A stretch of 64,000 nucleotides of DNA from Oceanispirochaeta sp. (GTDB lineage Bacteria; Spirochaetota; Spirochaetia; DSM-2461), in assembly GCA_963663385.2 (NCBI GenBank), contig CAXXXD010000002.1, positions 1,440,001 through 1,504,000 on the forward strand, read 5' to 3'. The first letter of the stretch is position 1, and each line of letters starts with the position of its first letter. The notes beneath the pieces are model-generated. The model saw only the letters and a list, made by a program, of their open reading frames with translations, had not been told where the DNA came from and searched no databases. The position numbers were made by a program, and so were the translations under genes. Shown piece by piece: positions 5,024 through 64,000 of this stretch.

Positions 5024-5045
5024 AAATAAGGTTATTTCATGAGAT

Positions 5046-5073
5046 CCCTGAGTGAAGTCGAAGGGTCGAAGGG
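5046..5073. repeat. REP-like short element CCCTGAGTGAAGTCGAAGGG with duplicated TCGAAGGG tail
   Basis: Direct reading; related degenerate inverted copy at 9496-9516. Confidence 0.45.
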
Positions 5074-6357
5074 TCAGAATTCCACCCGTTCTTTTCTGGC
5101 TTGCAGCTGCTTTAATTTGAATATGTTGTAAATCCATTCATTGGATTCGCTATAGTATAGTTCTCTGGCTGTCAGAAAATCCATAAAGGCATATTCAAAT
5201 TCATTCCGGAAATAGAGAGCCTCGCCTCTGTAGTAGTGCAGTCTGGCCAGAATCTCCCTATCGTATACCTTATTAAGCTCCCGGTCTGTTCTGGTTATGA
5301 CAGATTCCCAATCCTGGTTTTCCAGAAGGAGAGGAATCCCTTCCAGAGCGGAATGGAGCGGTTCAACCCTGTCGGCATCCAGAACCTCAACTTCTTTCCA
5401 TTCAATATCCCTTACGGATTTTCCGAAATTCAGAGCTGCCAGTTTCAAAGCTGTATCGCCGCTCAGTTCAACAGGTGCATCAGGAAGCGCCGGACCGGGC
5501 AGGGGTTTGCCCTGTTCTATATCACTGCTGATATTTAAAACCGGGAGTGGTATATGGCGGGAGGGAAACTGGAAACTATGGGCCTCCGCCGGGCTCCACT
5601 CATCCAGGGGAATGATCACAGGTTCAAGGGTTACGCTGCCTTCATAAAGAATCTCTTCACTTCCCGCCTCGAAGAGATCCTTGTCCACAAGGGCATAATA
5701 AAAGGGGATTCCCGGGACAACCGTATCTTTCCACTGGAGTTTCCCGCCGCTGAGAGTCGCAACACGTGCTGCTTTCAGAAGGTCTTCCCTATTCCGGGGG
5801 TACTCTACACTTCGGAACAGGAGAACCGGCCGGTCCATTCTGGATGACAGGGCGCTGATCTGCATATCCTGAATATCTGGATTCACTTTCAAATCGGAAA
5901 TATAGGTGGTTCTTTCTTCTTCCACAGCATGAAGTACAGCGCCGACCGGTTCCATATTCATGTTTCTATAAGGAATAAAAACATCAAAAAGCCGGTCTCC
6001 TTCCTGAACCAGCACAAGAAAATACCACTCATCCCCGTTGCCCGGTTCAAACAGATACTGCTCCTCTCCGGTAGCAAGGGTCTCAAGCAGAGTCGCATCG
6101 TTCAGACTCTCTTTATTATTGAAAGGCTGGTCCGAATAGTAGATCTTATATACAGGAGAATCCAGATTTCTGGCATCCTTCCAGCTAAGGAGGATTGAAG
6201 CCCCTTTTGTTTCCGCTCTGAAGCGGCTGGCAAAAGGAGCAAATATCTCTTCCCGGCCTTCCTCAACTCCGGTCTGGGAGGATACCGGGATTAATGAAGA
6301 GAGACTTAATAGGAGGATGACGTGCAGGATTATCTTTTTATTCATAGTTGAACTCAT
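5074..6357 (-). CDS. Exported hypothetical protein with C-terminal TPR-like helices (start probably at MNKK, 6342)
   Basis: 427-aa ORF, signal-peptide-like N-terminus, HYYRGEALYF TPR-like segment. Confidence 0.7.
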   Translation of the reverse strand: MSSTMNKKIILHVILLLSLSSLIPVSSQTGVEEGREEIFAPFASRFRAETKGASILLSWKDARNLDSPVYKIYYSDQPFNNKESLNDATLLETLATGEEQYLFEPGNGDEWYFLVLVQEGDRLFDVFIPYRNMNMEPVGAVLHAVEEERTTYISDLKVNPDIQDMQISALSSRMDRPVLLFRSVEYPRNREDLLKAARVATLSGGKLQWKDTVVPGIPFYYALVDKDLFEAGSEEILYEGSVTLEPVIIPLDEWSPAEAHSFQFPSRHIPLPVLNISSDIEQGKPLPGPALPDAPVELSGDTALKLAALNFGKSVRDIEWKEVEVLDADRVEPLHSALEGIPLLLENQDWESVITRTDRELNKVYDREILARLHYYRGEALYFRNEFEYAFMDFLTARELYYSESNEWIYNIFKLKQLQARKERVEF

Positions 6358-6447
6358 TTATATTTTCGGCAGACAGGGTGGTAAACAGGACAAAAAAAGG
6401 AAATCTCTCCGTTGACCCCTCATTATGACGGAGGGTATGATGAATAC

Positions 6448-53286: not shown

Positions 53287-53913
53287 CTACTTCAGGATAT
53301 TTTTCAAATCCTTAAAAACATCTTCGGGTTTCTGGCTGCTGTCCACATCTATCAGGGCCCCTTCGTTCTGGTAGAATTCGATTAATGGCGCTGTTGATTT
53401 ATCATAAACTGATAAACGGTTTTTGATAGCCTCGATTTTGTCATCATCTCTGGTGTACAGTTCTCCGGAGCATTTATCGCATACCCCGTCTTTCCTGGGG
53501 GGGATGAATTCAATATGAAAACTTTCACCGCAGGATCTGCAAACCCTTCTTCCTGATAATCTTCTGATAACTTCATCTTCGGGGATGGTAAAATTTACGA
53601 CTTTATCAATTGAAGTAAATTCCTTCAGGGATTCAGCCTGAGGTATGGTACGGGGAAATCCGTCCAGGATATAACCGTTTTTTGTGTCATCCTGCTCAAG
53701 TCTTTCTCTAACCATCGCAGTGGTAAGCTCATCAGGCACAAGGTCTCCCTTGTCGAGAATACTTTTTACCTGTTTGCCAAGTTCTGTCTGATTTTTAATG
53801 GCTGCTCTGAAAAGATCACCGGTAGATATATGAGGAATACTGTAATGTTCTTTAGCCTTAAAAGCCATAGTACCTTTTCCCGCCCCGGGAGGTCCTAAAA
53901 AAATCAAATTCAT
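53287..53913 (-). CDS. adk: Adenylate kinase (zinc-LID type)
   Basis: GPPGAGKGT, HISTGDLFR, LDGFPRT, CxxC...CxxC LID. Confidence 0.97.
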   Translation of the reverse strand: MNLIFLGPPGAGKGTMAFKAKEHYSIPHISTGDLFRAAIKNQTELGKQVKSILDKGDLVPDELTTAMVRERLEQDDTKNGYILDGFPRTIPQAESLKEFTSIDKVVNFTIPEDEVIRRLSGRRVCRSCGESFHIEFIPPRKDGVCDKCSGELYTRDDDKIEAIKNRLSVYDKSTAPLIEFYQNEGALIDVDSSQKPEDVFKDLKNILK

Positions 53914-54140
53914 TCTTTCACCTCTTCTTCTGTATTTGTGTAAGTATTATGACATGCTCTGGAACAAAAACCTTGAGTGAATTCTGTATCCAGAGAATAG
54001 TATCGGCCGCAGCTTTTACAGCATCCGTATTGATCGGCACAATCTTCGGAACAGTAGGCTCCATTGATCATTACTACTTCGGGGCAGTATTTTCCGCAAT
54101 TGACACACTTCTTGTAACTCTTGGATTCTGTTTCAGACAT
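53910..54140 (-). CDS. Small protein with two tandem FCS/TRASH-like Cys motifs
   Basis: CVNC-x14-CSEDC and CKSC-x14-CSRAC; stop overlaps adk start (ATGA); start ATG 54140. Confidence 0.7.
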   Translation of the reverse strand: MSETESKSYKKCVNCGKYCPEVVMINGAYCSEDCADQYGCCKSCGRYYSLDTEFTQGFCSRACHNTYTNTEEEVKE

Positions 54141-54147
54141 AGATAAA

Positions 54148-54176
54148 ATAATATCCAAATAAAATTGTCCGGTCAA
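54148..54176 (-). promoter_or_regulatory. Sigma70 promoter, probably producing a leaderless transcript
   Basis: TTGACC-N17-TATTAT-N7-ATG. Confidence 0.6.
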
Positions 54177-54281: not shown

Positions 54282-54603
54282 CACGGAGCACTCGGGGCGA
54301 TAAGCTGCGAACCGCACAGAACTAAATGTTCTTTTACAAAGGAATTAGAGAAGGGAAATTGAAGTATTTGACGAGAGTCAAGACTGCTGCGTACCGGAGG
54401 CCCGAAGGGCTGAGGAACGCAGTAACTGGTAGAAATGTTCAAATCCTGAAACTTTACGGTTGAGGGGTTTGTCCTAGACGTTAGTTTTCTTTAGAGATAA
54501 AGGGACTGACTTTCGCTTTCAGCTGTTCAGGATGATTACATCCGCTTTGCAATGGCTGAGGGTTTTGGTAGAAAGTTATCCACCTTGTGTGGATAAATTA
54601 TAT

Positions 54604-56143
<1,540 letters not shown>

Positions 56144-56340
56144 AGCGTGAAAGGTATAAGTCTTGAGGTTTGTACGCCTTGAGCAGTGAGTCACTATTTA
56201 TAGTGCCTATCAGTAGTTACGTTCCTCGGTCTTTGACCTGTGGTACGTAACTTGCTTGATTCTCGTCAACTACTTCTAATTTCCCGTCAGATAATTCCTT
56301 AAAGGGCTTTAGGCGATTTGAGTTTAAGGCCAAACAATTA

Positions 56341-56414
<74 letters not shown>

Positions 56415-56548
56415 TAAAATTAAGTTTGTATCTTGAACAGGATCAAACTTTTTTTACGCCGAATTGCTTGCAGTGAGGCGGGAGATGCGGGAGGCTTTAC
56501 TCTTGCGGATCTTTGAAAAGGTAATAGCGAAGGGATAAATAATAATAT

Positions 56549-59472
<2,924 letters not shown>

Positions 59473-59583
59473 ATATTATTATTTATCTCTTCAGTTTTAT
59501 ATAAATTGCAATCGCTTTGGAAGCTAGGAATACTTCTGGAGAGTGAATGCTTCTTGTCAGGGTAAGACTTGATAAGATTATTA

Positions 59584-59692
<109 letters not shown>

Positions 59693-59697
59693 TATTT

Positions 59698-59731
59698 GCC
59701 CCTTGTCTTAGGATGAGGGGCTTTTTCTTTT
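59698..59731 (+). terminator. rRNA operon terminator
   Basis: GCCCCTTGTC-TTAG-GATGAGGGGC followed by T-run. Confidence 0.75.
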
Positions 59732-59762
59732 ATAACCGGTTGCGACGACCTTTTTATTAAAA

Positions 59763-61394
59763 TTATAACTCTGAAAAGCAGTCCCCCTGACAGAATCCTT
59801 CCTCATGAAGGGGGCAGTTCCTGCAGATATCAAATACCGGTCTCTGAATAAGGTTATTTAGCGTAGAGTAATAGTTTCCCGGTAAATTGTCCGCCCCTGA
59901 ATATTCCTTGAATCGGTATGTATCTTTTGTTAATGCTTCGCAGGGACTGTAAGTCCCATCGGGATTAAGATTAAAATGAGAAGTAAAATCGTTCCTGTCC
60001 AGATTGCAGATATTGTTTAGATGAGTGTTCCGGAGCAGGTACTTTGATGATTCATTGTCAAAGAGGCAAAGCGGTATAGGGTTTGATATGATGATTTTAT
60101 GTCTTCTGAATTCATATCTGCTTTTTAAATGTTTAACAATAGAGAGAAGATAATCCGCATAGGTTTTAATGGTTTGTTCCGACTTAACTTTATTACAGCG
60201 GGATAATGAGGCTGACAGGCTGATAACCGGATATTGAACTATATCAATATACTTGTTAAGGAAATCCCAGCTCTCATTTTCAGTAAAAGAAACATCATAT
60301 CGCAGAACAATCTGTTTAGAGCAGGTTGTTGCTTTCAGGATATTCTGTGTTATCTGGCGGATCTGCTGTTCTGATTTCAGATTTCTATCTTCAAATAGCT
60401 GAATCACAATTTTTTTCAGATCTTCGAATCTGATAATCTGTGACCAGATATTTTCATGAAATTGCGCCGTTGATGTTATGGTTGTCTGTAGATTGAATCG
60501 TGCTGTTTCAGACAGATAATTCAGGCAGTGGGGTAAAAGGTTTTCCAGACCAGACAGGTTCAGGGTTTTCTTTTCTTTTTCTGATGCGGTAATATTTAAA
60601 ATATCTTCAAACTTTTCCCAATTTATCTGCAGATCCGGAGCTGACGTGTCTTTTTTCCGGTTGGTGCAGTGAAAGCAGCTCATCGGGCCTGAATCCCGTA
60701 AATTAATGGAAACCTGGGTTGAAACCGATTCAAAGATCTTCTCCCGTTCTGCCCTGAATGTTTCATATAGTTTGAATTTCCCTTCTTTGAAAACTATTGT
60801 GCTGTCCAGATTTTCAATTCCCGGAAAATATGCCAGAGACAGGTAATGCTGCAAAAAAAGTTCATCCGGAATGCTGGAGAGAAGGTTTGAAAGATTTCTG
60901 AGTCTAAGTTCTGACAAGAGATGCAGAAAGAGGCTGTTATTAAAATGCCGTATATCAGGGTGAAAATCCTTTTTTTCAACCAACTTCCTTTTCCTGAATG
61001 AGAAGGCGGGATCCATCATAAGGAGATCAAATGCTTTATCTCTGATTGATGGATCATGGTAGAAGAGGAGAGGCAGTATATTTTCGGTTTGATTAAAATC
61101 AAAGTTGTTTTTCTGAAGATCCAGTAAACCTTTGAGGATAAAATCATTTGAAGACTGATTACCTCTGCTTAATTCAGGATTGACTTTATGGCCGGACTCT
61201 CCTGCAGTTGACTCATTCTCCACTTCCTGTTCCATTTGATTAATATTGAATTCTTTACCGATGGATCTGATCTGATACCATATTTTTTTTATTTTACCCA
61301 TATAAAAACCCAGCTTTCTTAAATGGGCAACAGAGTTTTTAGGGTCCAGAAGAAGAATTATAAAAAGAATCAGTATAATCTCAATTAATACCAT
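59763..61394 (-). CDS. TatB-like N-terminus fused to a degenerate radical SAM core and SPASM domain
   Basis: EIILILFIILLLDPK...LRKLG.YMGKIKK (TatB-like TM plus amphipathic helix); GPMSCFHC (CxxxCxxC missing first Cys); PLC, NIC, NPDG.YSPC, CRNC-x7-C-x3-C. Confidence 0.7.
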   Translation of the reverse strand: MVLIEIILILFIILLLDPKNSVAHLRKLGFYMGKIKKIWYQIRSIGKEFNINQMEQEVENESTAGESGHKVNPELSRGNQSSNDFILKGLLDLQKNNFDFNQTENILPLLFYHDPSIRDKAFDLLMMDPAFSFRKRKLVEKKDFHPDIRHFNNSLFLHLLSELRLRNLSNLLSSIPDELFLQHYLSLAYFPGIENLDSTIVFKEGKFKLYETFRAEREKIFESVSTQVSINLRDSGPMSCFHCTNRKKDTSAPDLQINWEKFEDILNITASEKEKKTLNLSGLENLLPHCLNYLSETARFNLQTTITSTAQFHENIWSQIIRFEDLKKIVIQLFEDRNLKSEQQIRQITQNILKATTCSKQIVLRYDVSFTENESWDFLNKYIDIVQYPVISLSASLSRCNKVKSEQTIKTYADYLLSIVKHLKSRYEFRRHKIIISNPIPLCLFDNESSKYLLRNTHLNNICNLDRNDFTSHFNLNPDGTYSPCEALTKDTYRFKEYSGADNLPGNYYSTLNNLIQRPVFDICRNCPLHEEGFCQGDCFSEL

Positions 61395-61395
61395 A

Positions 61396-62091
61396 TCAGC
61401 CCCATTTCAGGAGTTTTGCAGCAGCAAGACAGAGGAGATACAGGATGAACAGGGGGATCGCTACAATAAACTGGGATAGTAGGTCCTGAGTCATGACAGC
61501 CGAAATCAACAGGGCTACGGGAATAAAATAGGGAATGAATTTAATAAGTCTGGCTCTTTTCAGAATTCGGAATCTGAGCAGTATCAGGGTAATTACCGGA
61601 AACTGGAGCGCTACACAGAAGGCCAGGGTGAATTTGAAATAGAAGCTGATGAATTCATTATAGGAAAAAATCTTGGTCAGACTATCCGGAATAAATGCTT
61701 TAGATTCCAGAAAATAGATTGTTATGGGGAGAAAAATTCTTACAGCGTAAATGGCTGTACAGTAGAGAATTAGACTTAACAGAAAAAGAGTTGAAAAAGT
61801 TGTTTTCTCTTTTTTTTCCAGAGCCGGGAGGATAAAAAGAAGAATATTAAACAGGAAAACAGGAAGAGACAATAGCAGTCCTATATACAGTGAAACCTGG
61901 ATCCTGATAGTGAAGCCTTCATAGACTTTCATTACATGAAAATCTATTTGAAAGGTGCTGTTCAGATATCCTATAAAACGAGGGAAAAGAATGTAGGCGC
62001 TTATTGAAAAAATTATGAAAAAAACTAACGCAATTATCAGTTTCGTCCGTAACTCAATGAGGTGTTGTGTAAATGTGAGGTTTTTTTCCAT
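61396..62091 (-). CDS. tatC: Twin-arginine translocase subunit TatC
   Basis: HLIELR, FILPAL...EK, FQ-like LQFPV, D.LSQ...AIP...LY; multi-TM hydrophobic pattern; next to tatA. Confidence 0.9.
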   Translation of the reverse strand: MEKNLTFTQHLIELRTKLIIALVFFIIFSISAYILFPRFIGYLNSTFQIDFHVMKVYEGFTIRIQVSLYIGLLLSLPVFLFNILLFILPALEKKEKTTFSTLFLLSLILYCTAIYAVRIFLPITIYFLESKAFIPDSLTKIFSYNEFISFYFKFTLAFCVALQFPVITLILLRFRILKRARLIKFIPYFIPVALLISAVMTQDLLSQFIVAIPLFILYLLCLAAAKLLKWG

Positions 62092-62298
62092 TTAATGGTT
62101 ATTGGAATCGGAATCGGATGGGTCATCATCCGGTTTTGAAGATTTCTCTTCACTCTCTTCTTTCATTCCGCTTTTAAGACCTTTCTTGAATTCTACCAGC
62201 CCTTCACCGATTGAGCGGCCCAGTTTCGGCAGCTTGGATGAACCGAAAATGAGTAATATGGCACCGCCAACTACAAGTATTTCTACAAGACTGATCAT
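62092..62298 (-). CDS. tatA: Twin-arginine translocase subunit TatA/E
   Basis: EI.V....LLIFG..KLP.LGRSIG.G..EFKKG. Confidence 0.93.
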   Translation of the reverse strand: MISLVEILVVGGAILLIFGSSKLPKLGRSIGEGLVEFKKGLKSGMKEESEEKSSKPDDDPSDSDSNNH

Positions 62299-62331
62299 GA
62301 GATACCTCTTTTATTAAAGCAAAGTTATTAC

Positions 62332-62595
62332 CTATTTAGTCTGTCCGTAATAGTAGTAATAATAGTAATAATAATTATAGTAGTCGGAATAGTAGTAGTA
62401 ATTGTAATAATTAGAGTAGTAATAGTAGTAATTGTAATAGTTAGAGTAATTGTAATAATCAGAGTAAGTAAAAAGATCACAGCTGCTGACGACTACTGCT
62501 GTTCCGATACCAAGACCGATTTTTCCAATTCTTTCCAGAGCCTGTCTACGGGAGATAGTCGGTTTTTCTTTGCTTTCACCAGTATCAGTTCCCAT
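62332..62595 (-). CDS. Tat-signal, Tyr-rich lipoprotein; putative radical-SAM-modified precursor peptide (87 aa)
   Basis: SD GGAG 7 nt before ATG 62595; SRRQAL twin-Arg, h-region, VSS-C39 lipobox; tail with 4x YS(D/N)YYN and poly-Tyr. Confidence 0.85.
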   Translation of the reverse strand: MGTDTGESKEKPTISRRQALERIGKIGLGIGTAVVVSSCDLFTYSDYYNYSNYYNYYYYYSNYYNYYYYSDYYNYYYYYYYYYGQTK

Positions 62596-62627: not shown

Positions 62628-62656
62628 AGTATAAATTCAATAATATCATATATCTA
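62628..62656 (-). promoter_or_regulatory. Putative internal sigma70 promoter for the precursor gene, overlapping a 16-bp palindrome
   Basis: TAGATA-N17-TATACT on minus strand; TTATACTTAAGTATAA palindrome at 62619-62634. Confidence 0.45.
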
Positions 62657-63760
62657 CTCATTCGGAAACATTTCTATTCGATTCCCGGTTAAAGGCTCGA
62701 TATACTGTGTCATCAGTCTTTGCACTATTTCACAGGCTTCTCCCCGTTTCATAATATCCCCCTTCAAAGCCAGTGTATCGATAGGGCATCCTCCATGACA
62801 CATCCCCCAGAAACGGCAGTATTTGCAGTCAGTCTGTTTCAGAACAATTTGCCGTTTATTTATGATATCTCTTTTACTGTGTTCCAAGGCCGCTCTGATA
62901 CCGGTATTCCGGATATTTCCATAATCTGCCAGGTTTTCATCTCCTGCTTTTCCGCATTGGGAAAGCTTTCCCGTTGGACCTATGTAGAGCCAGTGGTTGG
63001 CGCAATTACCGGCATAATCACATAGAAGTCCACCTTTGCCATTTATAAACCTGATAAACATATCAATTGGACGAAGACCTTCATACTTTTCCGGATTTGC
63101 CAGGTAGATCGGCACCAGCTTTCCAAGGAAGTCGGCATACTCTTCGGGCGTAATATTTATATTGAAGGGATCATCCCCGTAAATGTAAATTTTATTAAAG
63201 GCTGGAGTTGTCTTAGTGTTTATATTTTTCAGGTGGTTAAGTATTCCTACCGGATTTTCAAGGGATCTTCTATGAACGACATATATAACCCCCCAGCTCA
63301 GGTTGTTCCGTTCAGCCAGTTCCGTTCCCTTGAAAAAAAGCTCCTTATAGATCTTTGAATCCCTTTTTTCTCCTATTCCCCGAATACCTTCTATGGGGTC
63401 GTAACTTGAACCTATCATATCAATCTTCAACTCTTTAAATACATCAACTAATTCCTGTGTCAAGCAAGTCATATTTGATTGGATCAGATGCCGGATTCTG
63501 TTTTCAGTCTCTCTGCAATAGGTTCTCTGGTATTCCAGTGCCTTTCTGAAATAGTCAGGACCAAGAAGGCAGGGTTCTCCTCCATGCCAGGTCAGCTGTA
63601 TGGATTCATCCGGGAATTCCTTTAAATAGTCATTCATACGTTTAAACACTGTTTCCAGTATTTCGAAAGTCATTATTTTTTCCTGATGCTTTTTTATAAC
63701 ACCGCAGTAAAGACAGTTGGAATTGCAGAGTTCAATGGGTTTGAAAATTATAACTGCCAT
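62654..63760 (-). CDS. Radical SAM/SPASM domain enzyme (anSME/peptide-maturase clan)
   Basis: CNSNCLYC, WHGGEP, QSN; SPASM C-x5-C...C...CKYC-x5-C-x3-C...C (8 Cys). Confidence 0.92.
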   Translation of the reverse strand: MAVIIFKPIELCNSNCLYCGVIKKHQEKIMTFEILETVFKRMNDYLKEFPDESIQLTWHGGEPCLLGPDYFRKALEYQRTYCRETENRIRHLIQSNMTCLTQELVDVFKELKIDMIGSSYDPIEGIRGIGEKRDSKIYKELFFKGTELAERNNLSWGVIYVVHRRSLENPVGILNHLKNINTKTTPAFNKIYIYGDDPFNINITPEEYADFLGKLVPIYLANPEKYEGLRPIDMFIRFINGKGGLLCDYAGNCANHWLYIGPTGKLSQCGKAGDENLADYGNIRNTGIRAALEHSKRDIINKRQIVLKQTDCKYCRFWGMCHGGCPIDTLALKGDIMKRGEACEIVQRLMTQYIEPLTGNRIEMFPNE

Positions 63761-64000
63761 TTTTCGCCTTCCCGGCGGGGCTCCCGCTTCGTTGCTGAAT
63801 CTATATATTTGAGAATGCTGTCAAACAGGATTTTATAGGAATCATCTTTTTCACACTGGTTCAGGTAAGCCATCCGGCAGCTTCTCCAGGCCGAGCAGAA
63901 AGAACACTTTTCATTATCTATAAATACTCTGGTGCGAATTTCCCGGATTTTTCTGTTTTCACAATCATTGATAATCTCTTTCAGCTGTTCCAATCCGGAA
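63748..64000 (-). CDS. C-terminal fragment of a protein with a SPASM-like Cys motif (5' end outside window)
   Basis: Frame is open to the window edge; CSFCSAWRSC (Cx2Cx5C); overlaps the rSAM start by 13 nt. Confidence 0.6.
   Translation of the reverse strand, partial: SGLEQLKEIINDCENRKIREIRTRVFIDNEKCSFCSAWRSCRMAYLNQCEKDDSYKILFDSILKYIDSATKREPRREGEKWQL

Follow-up and report, generated by a model that had tools for sequence, protein, structure and literature searches.

A TatB-like domain fused to a degenerate radical SAM/SPASM protein

The stretch of contig CAXXXD010000002.1 from Oceanispirochaeta sp. analysed here (64,000 nt in its whole length, referred to as the window) carries on its minus strand, at 59763..61394, an open reading frame (ORF) of 543 aa. 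In this protein, ORF543, an N-terminus resembling the TatB subunit of the twin-arginine translocation (Tat) system is fused to a helical domain and to a degenerate radical S-adenosylmethionine (SAM) enzyme with a SPASM domain. ORF543 starts with ATG, contains no internal stop codon, and stands directly behind tatA and tatC in a peptide-modification cluster. The fusion was confirmed to be conserved in homologues, most of which retain the catalytic motifs that ORF543 has lost. A sequence-only reading of the gene had proposed this architecture, and every motif that it quoted was found at its place in ORF543. The domains are as follows:

61251..61394, minus strand: TatB-like domain (aa 1-48), with a transmembrane (TM) helix carrying E5, a hinge at D17-P18 and an amphipathic helix
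61140..61250, minus strand: charged linker (aa 49-85), poorly conserved and variable in length across the family
60729..61139, minus strand: all-helical domain (aa 86-222), with the motifs DPxFxFxxR and LPGIxNL
60090..60728, minus strand: degenerate radical SAM core and bridge (aa 223-435), assigned from the alignment and the predicted fold
59766..60089, minus strand: SPASM domain (aa 436-543), keeping seven Cys; the stop codon follows at 59763-59765

The N-terminal motifs of ORF543 are E5 in the TM helix, D17-P18-K19, and L25-RKLG-YMGKIKK-37. Across 13 N-termini of the family, the Glu (E5), Pro (P18), and Gly (G29) were invariant. A profile of these 13 N-termini was compared with the PDB and matched four solved TatB chains (E 1.9e-7, 7.1e-7, 2.8e-5, and 1e-4), with an alignment spanning positions 1-60, i.e., the whole TM-hinge-amphipathic unit. 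The matches to TatAd (0.0077) and chloroplast TatA (0.56) were weaker, and all six PDB matches at E ≤ 1 were Tat subunits. The Pfam family TatA_B_E (PF02416) matched eight of the 13 N-termini at E ≤ 1, with a best value of 7.5e-7.

Free-standing counterparts of this domain were found in related genomes. At three tat loci of same-genus genomes (L034, L036, and L042), ORFs of 77-138 aa lie between tatC and tatA and resemble the fusion N-terminus at blastp E-values of 1e-4 to 1e-6. In genome G040, tatA and tatC are followed by a 78-aa TatB-like gene that also resembles it. The residue before the hinge Pro is D in ORF543, A, S, N, or F in the fused relatives, and R or S in the free-standing TatB-like proteins. 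As the free-standing proteins also lack a Gly at this position, the D-P hinge is a trait of the group and not a defect. Together with the profile matches, these genes support the claim of the sequence-only reading that the N-terminus is TatB-like, and they identify it as a TatB homologue. The simplest history would be that a tatB gene fused with its following gene.

Compared with TatB (PF02416; 2mi2_A, 9dzz_B, 9e02_F, and 9e03_B), ORF543 is alike in its TM helix with Glu, its Pro hinge and amphipathic helix, the disordered charged region that follows, and the position of its gene next to tatC. Ordinary TatB stops after a short cytoplasmic tail, whereas ORF543 runs on for approximately 460 residues, which make up the helical domain and the radical SAM/SPASM body. 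It further differs in the D-P hinge, which is usually G-P, and in that ORF543 alone falls below the curated cut-offs (17.9 bits on NCBIfam TatB_Rickett, cut-off 75). A complex prediction of TatC with the N-terminal 58 residues scored 0.00 and was discarded, as it counts neither for nor against binding.

An AlphaFold2 (AF2) model of ORF543 reached a predicted local distance difference test score (pLDDT) of 88.1 and a predicted template modelling score of 0.84; it was built on an alignment of 70 of 147 relatives and leans on active homologues. The model comprises helices at residues 2-16 and 18-48, a low-confidence region at approximately 49-80, helices up to residue 222, a strand-helix barrel, and a Cys-rich C-terminus. 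The charged linker that had been described behind the TatB part was recovered as a stretch of low confidence (pLDDT 52-63 over residues 41-80) and poor conservation (27% identity to the nearest relative). In a Foldseek search against the PDB, the best matches were SuiB (3.2e-7), DesII, CteB, PqqE, and anSME. A partial TIM-barrel fold is thus predicted for ORF543 from the AF2 model and from Foldseek matches of E 3e-7 and weaker. The Cys set of the SPASM domain (C443, C463, C485, and C524-x2-C527-x7-C535-x3-C539) falls entirely in invariant or near-invariant columns of the family, in line with the retention that had been suspected; the canonical SPASM spacing is CX2CX5CX3C. These predictions support a radical SAM/SPASM fold for the C-terminal part, as had been claimed.

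ORF543 taken alone gave little in direct searches. No match to Pfam Radical_SAM (PF04055) was obtained, although this family was found in 18 of 21 aligned relatives. For the SPASM domain (TIGR04085/PF13186), the model TIGR04085 scored 19.9 bits (E 7e-4; cut-off 27), the protein atlas returned nothing past 'radical SAM/SPASM-like', and a word-indexed protein search with the whole of ORF543 retrieved ORF543 alone. No curated NCBIfam family exceeded its cut-off for any scanned member of the family. The domain assignments rest on family profiles and the predicted fold, because ORF543 alone scores weakly against curated models.

The segment HDPSIRDKAFDLL, at about residues 112-124, had been called HEAT-like. 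The segment is present in a domain that was predicted to consist entirely of helices, also when folded alone (pLDDT 85.9). As to the HEAT label itself, VIA-align listed HEAT, ARM, and helical-repeat rows only, with Z ≤ 6.9, which lies inside the noise quoted for helical models, and the domain is assigned to no fold. Foldseek with the domain alone gave no match at E ≤ 0.001, and no TorD-like chaperone or peptide-recognition (RRE) domain was listed in the searches with this domain.

Conservation of the fusion in homologues

An exhaustive HMMER search retrieved 147 representative relatives at E ≤ 0.001, 17 of them at E ≤ 1e-30. The helical domain was present in 36 of the 147 representatives, and the TatB-like N-terminus in 13, all of which also have the helical domain. 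The others comprised 23 proteins with the helical domain and CX3CX2C and no TatB part, 89 with the enzyme part only, and 22 fragments of 101-322 aa. As the TatB profile was built from the same sequences, the count of 13 in 147 is a description of this set and cannot serve as an independent test.

A homologue was found in four of 40 relatives' genomes, and a scan of species-representative genomes with an alignment of 12 active members gave 19 loci. The closest loci were in metagenome-assembled genomes (MAGs) labelled Spirochaetales or Spirochaetaceae, and the farther ones in Myxococcales, Desulfobacterales, families of Bacteroidales, and others. Nine loci on distinct contigs carry the fusion with its N-terminus (the window, L008, L009, L010, L012, L013, L016, L017, and L018), and tatC lies directly upstream of the fusion in all of them except L016. 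The common gene order is rSAM_A, P287/P299, rSAM_B, precursor, tatA, tatC, and fusion. The cluster in L009 lacks tatA, which lies on another contig. After the fusion, a YcaO-family gene follows in L009 (5865-6929), L010, L012, and L016 (Pfam 1.1e-17), and a gene for a 307-325-aa protein, unrelated to YcaO and with no family match, takes this place in L008 and L011.

The single frame of ORF543 was compared with contigs of sequencing runs. Such contigs from three studies span 59708-62344 with no indels; two are identical to the window and one carries six substitutions. One covering contig may come from the sample behind the window assembly. Since the contigs from three studies show no indel, the single frame of ORF543 is not a sequencing error. 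Both checks proposed with the sequence-only reading, that homologues keep the fusion and that reads support one frame, were thus run with a positive outcome, and the fusion is conserved in homologues and not an assembly artefact.

Independent losses of the radical SAM motifs

ORF543 deviates from the family consensus at most of the positions expected of a radical SAM enzyme. The cluster motif CX3CX2C has become G236-PMS-C240-FH-C243, with Gly for the first Cys, and the region of the GGEP motif reads S281-GLENLL-287, with G-L-E-N (from G282) for G-G-E-P. The two remaining cluster Cys and the decayed GGEP are as they had been described. Furthermore, S-T-A replaces T-N-G, Gln replaces a conserved His (H332), and the F-P motif is deleted. 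Columns with a conservation of 85% or more in 17 active members were counted as conserved, and their retention was as follows:

ORF543 (P0001): core 11/32, helical domain 10/11, SPASM 21/29 with all seven Cys
P0002 (active): core 30/32, helical domain 11/11, SPASM 29/29
P0003 (active): core 31/32, helical domain 10/11, SPASM 27/29

ORF543 was 54% identical to P0002, its nearest relative, over the TatB domain; the values for the other parts were 38% (helical domain), 23% (core), and 43% (SPASM domain). The cores of the active relatives P0002 and P0003 share 42% identity. As the Cys of the SAM cluster and the SAM-binding motifs are lost, the body of ORF543 can probably no longer cleave SAM.

The proposal of a non-catalytic fold holds for ORF543 and not for its family, which is normally catalytic: 10 of the 13 fused representatives retain CX3CX2C and GGEP. 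The other two members without CX3CX2C, P0022 and P0030, also keep the TatB and helical parts, and P0030 is the gene of genome G037 inside the complete cluster L010. In the tree, the active P0002 is the partner of ORF543 (support 97) and the active P0011 that of P0022 (100), and P0030 forms a branch of its own. A single clade of inactivated members was rejected by the approximately unbiased test (p 3.7e-7). As the tree pairs ORF543 and P0022 with active members and a common clade is rejected by this test, the motifs were lost independently at least three times.

Pseudo-enzymes of this kind have parallels elsewhere. The NCBIfam families TIGR04150 (pseudo_rSAM_GG) and TIGR04347 (pseudo_SAM_Halo) comprise radical SAM/SPASM-like proteins without the SAM-cluster motif in peptide-modification clusters, which we take to be a precedent. 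Their matches were below threshold, with a best E of 5.6e-10 among the relatives of ORF543. They are whole families of pseudo-enzymes, whereas the family of ORF543 is otherwise active and its inactivation is sporadic. Among solved structures, the closest matches were SuiB (5v1s), CteB (5why), PqqE (6c8v), and anSME (4k37), with Foldseek E-values of 3e-7 to 5e-6. ORF543 shares with them the partial TIM barrel, a Cys-rich SPASM domain, an extra front domain, and a gene beside that of a small precursor. It differs from them in its front domain, which consists of helices only and yielded no match named as an RRE, in its predicted tether to the membrane via TatB, and in the lack of CX3CX2C and GGEP.

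Retention or decay of the inactivated body

We favour, without great confidence, the reading of ORF543 as a retained TatB with a body that is non-catalytic and still used. Its terminal branch is approximately 2.5 times as long as that of its active sister P0002 (1.31 and 0.53 replacements per site), and the 543 codons have stayed open in DNA of 38-40% GC. By a rough estimate, neutral drift of that excess would have given many nonsense changes.

Several observations weigh against this reading. All five differences that a related strain's contig shows within ORF543 are nonsynonymous (N83D, L163H, T226N, T250A, and S425N), and the single difference in tatA is synonymous; the depth of this contig is 2.9, and only one of its changes was seen in a second run. 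As approximately 79% of random changes in ORF543 would be nonsynonymous, five of five matches neutrality and not strong constraint, and the strain differences fit weak present-day constraint. P0022 and P0030 keep only 14/29 and 8/29 of the SPASM columns (helical domain 10/11 and 9/11), which looks like progressive decay and not like a preserved scaffold. The gene and its cluster were absent from all 10 same-genus genomes searched. The YcaO gene or the other gene found after the fusion in six other loci (the latter referred to as D325) is missing from the window, where an rRNA operon abuts ORF543. No RNA runs were among the sequencing runs listed for the locus.

These observations are what would be expected if only the TatB part worked and the body were a slowly decaying relic without function, kept by its fusion to a needed N-terminus, in a cluster that may be partly defunct. 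We consider this a serious alternative, albeit a less probable one. It agrees with the positions of the strain changes (residues 83, 163, 226, 250, and 425), none of which lies in the TatB or SPASM domain, with the 11 of 32 conserved columns left in the core, and with the deletions that accompany the SPASM loss in P0022 and P0030. It agrees less well with the open frame, as a stop codon after the TatB domain would cost nothing, yet 495 further codons are open despite an excess of approximately 0.8 replacements per site over the sister. The persistence of all seven SPASM Cys and of 10 of 11 helical columns also argues against it, as does the finding that all three inactivated members are full-length frames of 482-561 aa. 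A body in use was rated above an eroding one because the open frame and the branch length weigh against the strain changes.

It could also be supposed that the N-terminal helix is a generic membrane anchor with no role in Tat transport, and that the adjacency to tatC reflects co-regulation only. The N-terminus of ORF543 itself gave no TatA_B_E match at E ≤ 1 and lies under every curated TatA/B threshold, so that the Pfam check proposed for it failed on ORF543 alone and succeeded on the family. The usual G-P hinge is D-P here and A/S/N/F-P in relatives, and in L015 and L021, unfused members of the family go with precursors bearing Tat signals. Moreover, TatA and TatC suffice in many bacteria, so that the lack of another tatB is not proof that ORF543 is needed. 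A generic anchor is nevertheless improbable, given that the profile matched solved TatB chains down to E 1.9e-7 over the whole TM-hinge-amphipathic unit, that Glu, Pro, and Gly are invariant, that the free-standing TatB-like genes of relatives share a non-Gly hinge (R-P or S-P) and the operon position, and that the fused locus holds no other tatB candidate.

A last alternative, that ORF543 is still a radical SAM enzyme holding its cluster by non-canonical ligands, e.g., C240, H242, C243, and a distant residue, can draw on the two remaining Cys with a His between them, on the confidently predicted barrel, and on the variant cluster motifs that exist elsewhere in the superfamily, but it is very improbable, as the first Cys, GGEP, T-N-G, H332, and FP and in all 21 of 32 conserved core columns are lost, Pfam Radical_SAM does not match as it does in 18 of 21 relatives, and the confident fold came from an alignment dominated by active relatives.

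The gene cluster in the window

ORF543 is the last gene of a cluster on the minus strand transcribed in the order rSAM_A, P293, rSAM_B, Tyr-rich precursor, tatA, tatC, and ORF543. There is no gap (0 nt) between tatA and tatC, and the tatC stop codon is separated from the ORF543 start by 1 nt. The neighbouring features in the window are as follows:

59584..59692, plus strand: 5S rRNA (Rfam), end of a converging rRNA operon and boundary of the cluster
61396..62091, minus strand: tatC, 231 aa, Pfam TatC E 1.8e-34, of the cluster-linked lineage
62092..62298, minus strand: tatA, 68 aa, Pfam TatA_B_E E 6.9e-15
62332..62595, minus strand: Tyr-rich precursor, 87 aa from Met23 of a 109-aa ORF that starts at 62661
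62654..63760, minus strand: rSAM_B, 368 aa, with CNSNCLYC and GGEP intact, Pfam Radical_SAM 3.3e-9
63748..64000, minus strand: 3' part of the P293 gene, 293 aa in full, with a CxxCxxWRxC motif, running past the window end

The first gene, rSAM_A (331 aa), lies beyond the window end and has CVRSCPYC and GGEPS intact. None of the cluster proteins exceeded its curated NCBIfam cut-off. The best NCBIfam rows for rSAM_B were TIGR04083, DynA, anSME, and DarE, all under cut-off, and its N-terminal half was nearest to cyclophane-forming maturases, likewise below cut-off. These resemblances suggest, but do not show, that the cluster cross-links aromatic residues.

Homologues of P293 occupy the same position in eight other loci. 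P293 and its homologues always lie between rSAM_A and rSAM_B, measure 241-322 aa where the gene is complete, and share a C-terminal C-x2-C-x2-WR-x-C...C motif and a (K/R)WQ(L/F) end that overlaps the rSAM_B start. The part of the P293 gene outside the window is at L031:748-1629 (minus strand), continuing into the window at 63748-64000. Scans of curated family libraries gave no family match for P293.

On the other side of the cluster, the 5S rRNA ends at 59692, 71 nt from the ORF543 stop codon. The rRNA operon is complete (54602-59692, plus strand) and comprises 16S, one spacer tRNA (56341-56414), 23S, and 5S; the run contigs end at 59735-59750, as expected beside a repeated rRNA operon. Farther away, an 88-aa ORF with many CxxC pairs (53910-54176, minus strand) lies directly upstream of an adenylate-kinase-like gene (53287-53913).

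The Tyr-rich precursor

The precursor reads MGTDTGESKEKPTISRRQALERIGKIGLGIGTAVVVSSC from its second Met, followed by a core of approximately 47 residues, mostly Tyr with D, N, and S. The start at Met23 was inferred from the n-region length of the homologues. Its signal region consists of SRRQALERIGK, a hydrophobic h-region, and VSSC. Nine homologous spirochaete precursors combine the motif (S/T)R(R/K)-x-ALKR with a hydrophobic stretch ending in Cys and a core of Tyr-rich repeats. This set of RR/RK-ALKR signal, Cys, and Tyr-rich core was thereby found in 10 spirochaete clusters, including that of the window, and in one cluster from a MAG labelled Myxococcales. The homologue in genome G039 scored 16.3 bits on the Tat signal model TIGR01409 (cut-off 16.7). 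The Cys at the end of the signal may be read as a lipobox. A regular-expression scan of the genome for twin-arginine signals was discarded, as it returned 118 mostly spurious matches and missed the precursor because of its long n-to-h spacing.

The core ends in nine consecutive Tyr codons and is almost wholly composed of Y, N, D, and S. Opposite-frame ORFs at 62328-62480 and 62102-62317 are by-products of the low-complexity precursor DNA, and Logan contigs omit 62345-62456 as a repeat.

The same type of precursor goes with an unfused enzyme in L021 (labelled Myxococcales) and L015 (spirochaete). L015 is a locus of a very AT-rich spirochaete MAG, in which the enzyme frame (5040-6422, plus strand) is open from approximately 5040 and has CNLECNYC and GGEPT intact. 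This enzyme has no TatB part, no tatA or tatC nearby, and no ATG, GTG, or TTG before 5550, and its precursor keeps an RK-type signal. In four loci labelled Bacteroidales (L024-L027), Tyr-rich precursors have an ordinary leader with no Tat signal, and the enzymes are unfused. The MAGs of these loci are labelled Prevotellaceae, Tannerellaceae, and Dysgonamonadaceae, and three or four radical SAM genes surround precursors of 38-57 aa, which have a conserved KP-x-TKKH-x-x-MN-x-VQGS leader and a Tyr/Thr/Leu-rich core and matched no curated family. Their peptides may form an undescribed Tyr-rich class related to the spirochaete one. As Tyr-rich precursors accompany unfused enzymes in L015, L021, and L024-L027, the wider enzyme family is associated with such peptides, and the fusion to TatB arose in spirochaetes.

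The Tat system of the genome

The 5.3-Mb genome of the window (G000) contains a single TatA_B_E match and a single TatC match, and both are the cluster genes. The earlier observation that tatA and tatC lie directly upstream of ORF543 with no other tatB in sight therefore extends from the window to the genome. In G018 and G037, one TatC and one TatA-family gene exceeded the cut-offs, again both in the cluster; in G039, the only TatC is that of the cluster, and tatA lies on another contig. By comparison, one or two further TatCs, of approximately 250-270 aa, were found in eight of the 10 same-genus genomes, which lack the fusion. In a tree of TatC sequences, a branch separated the eight cluster-linked ones (support 89/79; 96/90 with the TatC of G040, which is their sister) from the other TatCs of relatives. 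As the only TatC of G000 belongs to the cluster-linked lineage, G000 has the cluster Tat system and lacks the TatC type of its same-genus relatives.

A genome scan with TIGR01409 (E ≤ 0.1) gave no match in G000 or G018, two in G039, four in G002, and two in G005. In neither G000 nor G018 did it recover the precursor of the cluster itself, and its sensitivity does not suffice to establish this precursor as the sole Tat substrate. The data suggest that G000 may have no Tat system besides that of the cluster, and that few substrates may depend on it.

Proposed mechanism

ORF543 would act as the TatB subunit of a cluster-borne Tat translocase. It would descend from a fusion of an ancestral tatB with the gene behind it, which encoded a radical SAM/SPASM maturase of the Tyr-rich peptide. 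In the family as a whole, the TatBC receptor would accommodate the TatB helix and hinge. The C-terminus of TatB is cytoplasmic, where an iron-sulphur/SAM enzyme must be, and the linker of approximately 35 residues would let the cytoplasmic helical domain and the enzyme body hang below the receptor. Docking of the twin-arginine signal of the precursor on TatBC would then bring the Tyr-rich core to the tethered enzyme. Export of the product would follow, probably with lipidation at the terminal Cys of the signal. In the window, the non-catalytic body may still bind the core or substrate, an auxiliary cluster, or a partner enzyme, and the chemistry would fall to rSAM_A and rSAM_B, which are intact.

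A further extension is put forward tentatively, as possible rather than probable. The Tat signal would double as the leader of a peptide that is made by ribosomes and modified after translation (RiPP), and TatBC would serve as the substrate-recognition module of the maturase, so that a private Tat system would couple modification and export at the translocon. Here, the body would be a non-catalytic gatekeeper that keeps hold of the substrate until both other radical SAM enzymes have finished. The sequence-only reading had likewise proposed a proofreading step that may couple maturation to export.

Such a role would resemble in concept that of the Tat proofreading chaperones TorD, DmsD, and NapD, cytoplasmic factors that hold a Tat substrate at or near its signal until maturation is done. 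They are soluble proteins, none of them joined to a subunit of the translocase. No likeness in sequence or fold to them was found; the helical-domain search listed none, which does not exclude it.

Implications

The Tat system exports folded or cofactor-loaded proteins. To our knowledge, the question of how maturation is checked before export has been answered so far only by soluble, substrate-specific chaperones. Full-text literature searches, with subscription journals outside their coverage, gave no Tat-subunit/radical SAM fusion, in agreement with the sequence-only reading, which knew of none, and no RiPP precursors with Tat signals. The component families are known; what is new is the architecture, the private Tat system in a peptide-modification cluster, and the family of Tyr-rich precursors with Tat signals. 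Should the body of ORF543 turn out to be debris, what remains is an unusual TatB that carries the fossil of an enzyme.

The fusion of TatB and a maturase near tatC in several spirochaete lineages would be, within the literature covered, the first case found of a modifying enzyme inside a translocase. With one small precursor and seven genes, the cluster offers a simple system for the coupling of modification and export, and it hints at Tyr-rich lipopeptides, probably cross-linked, of a class not yet described. The three separate inactivations of the tethered enzyme are natural experiments on this coupling.

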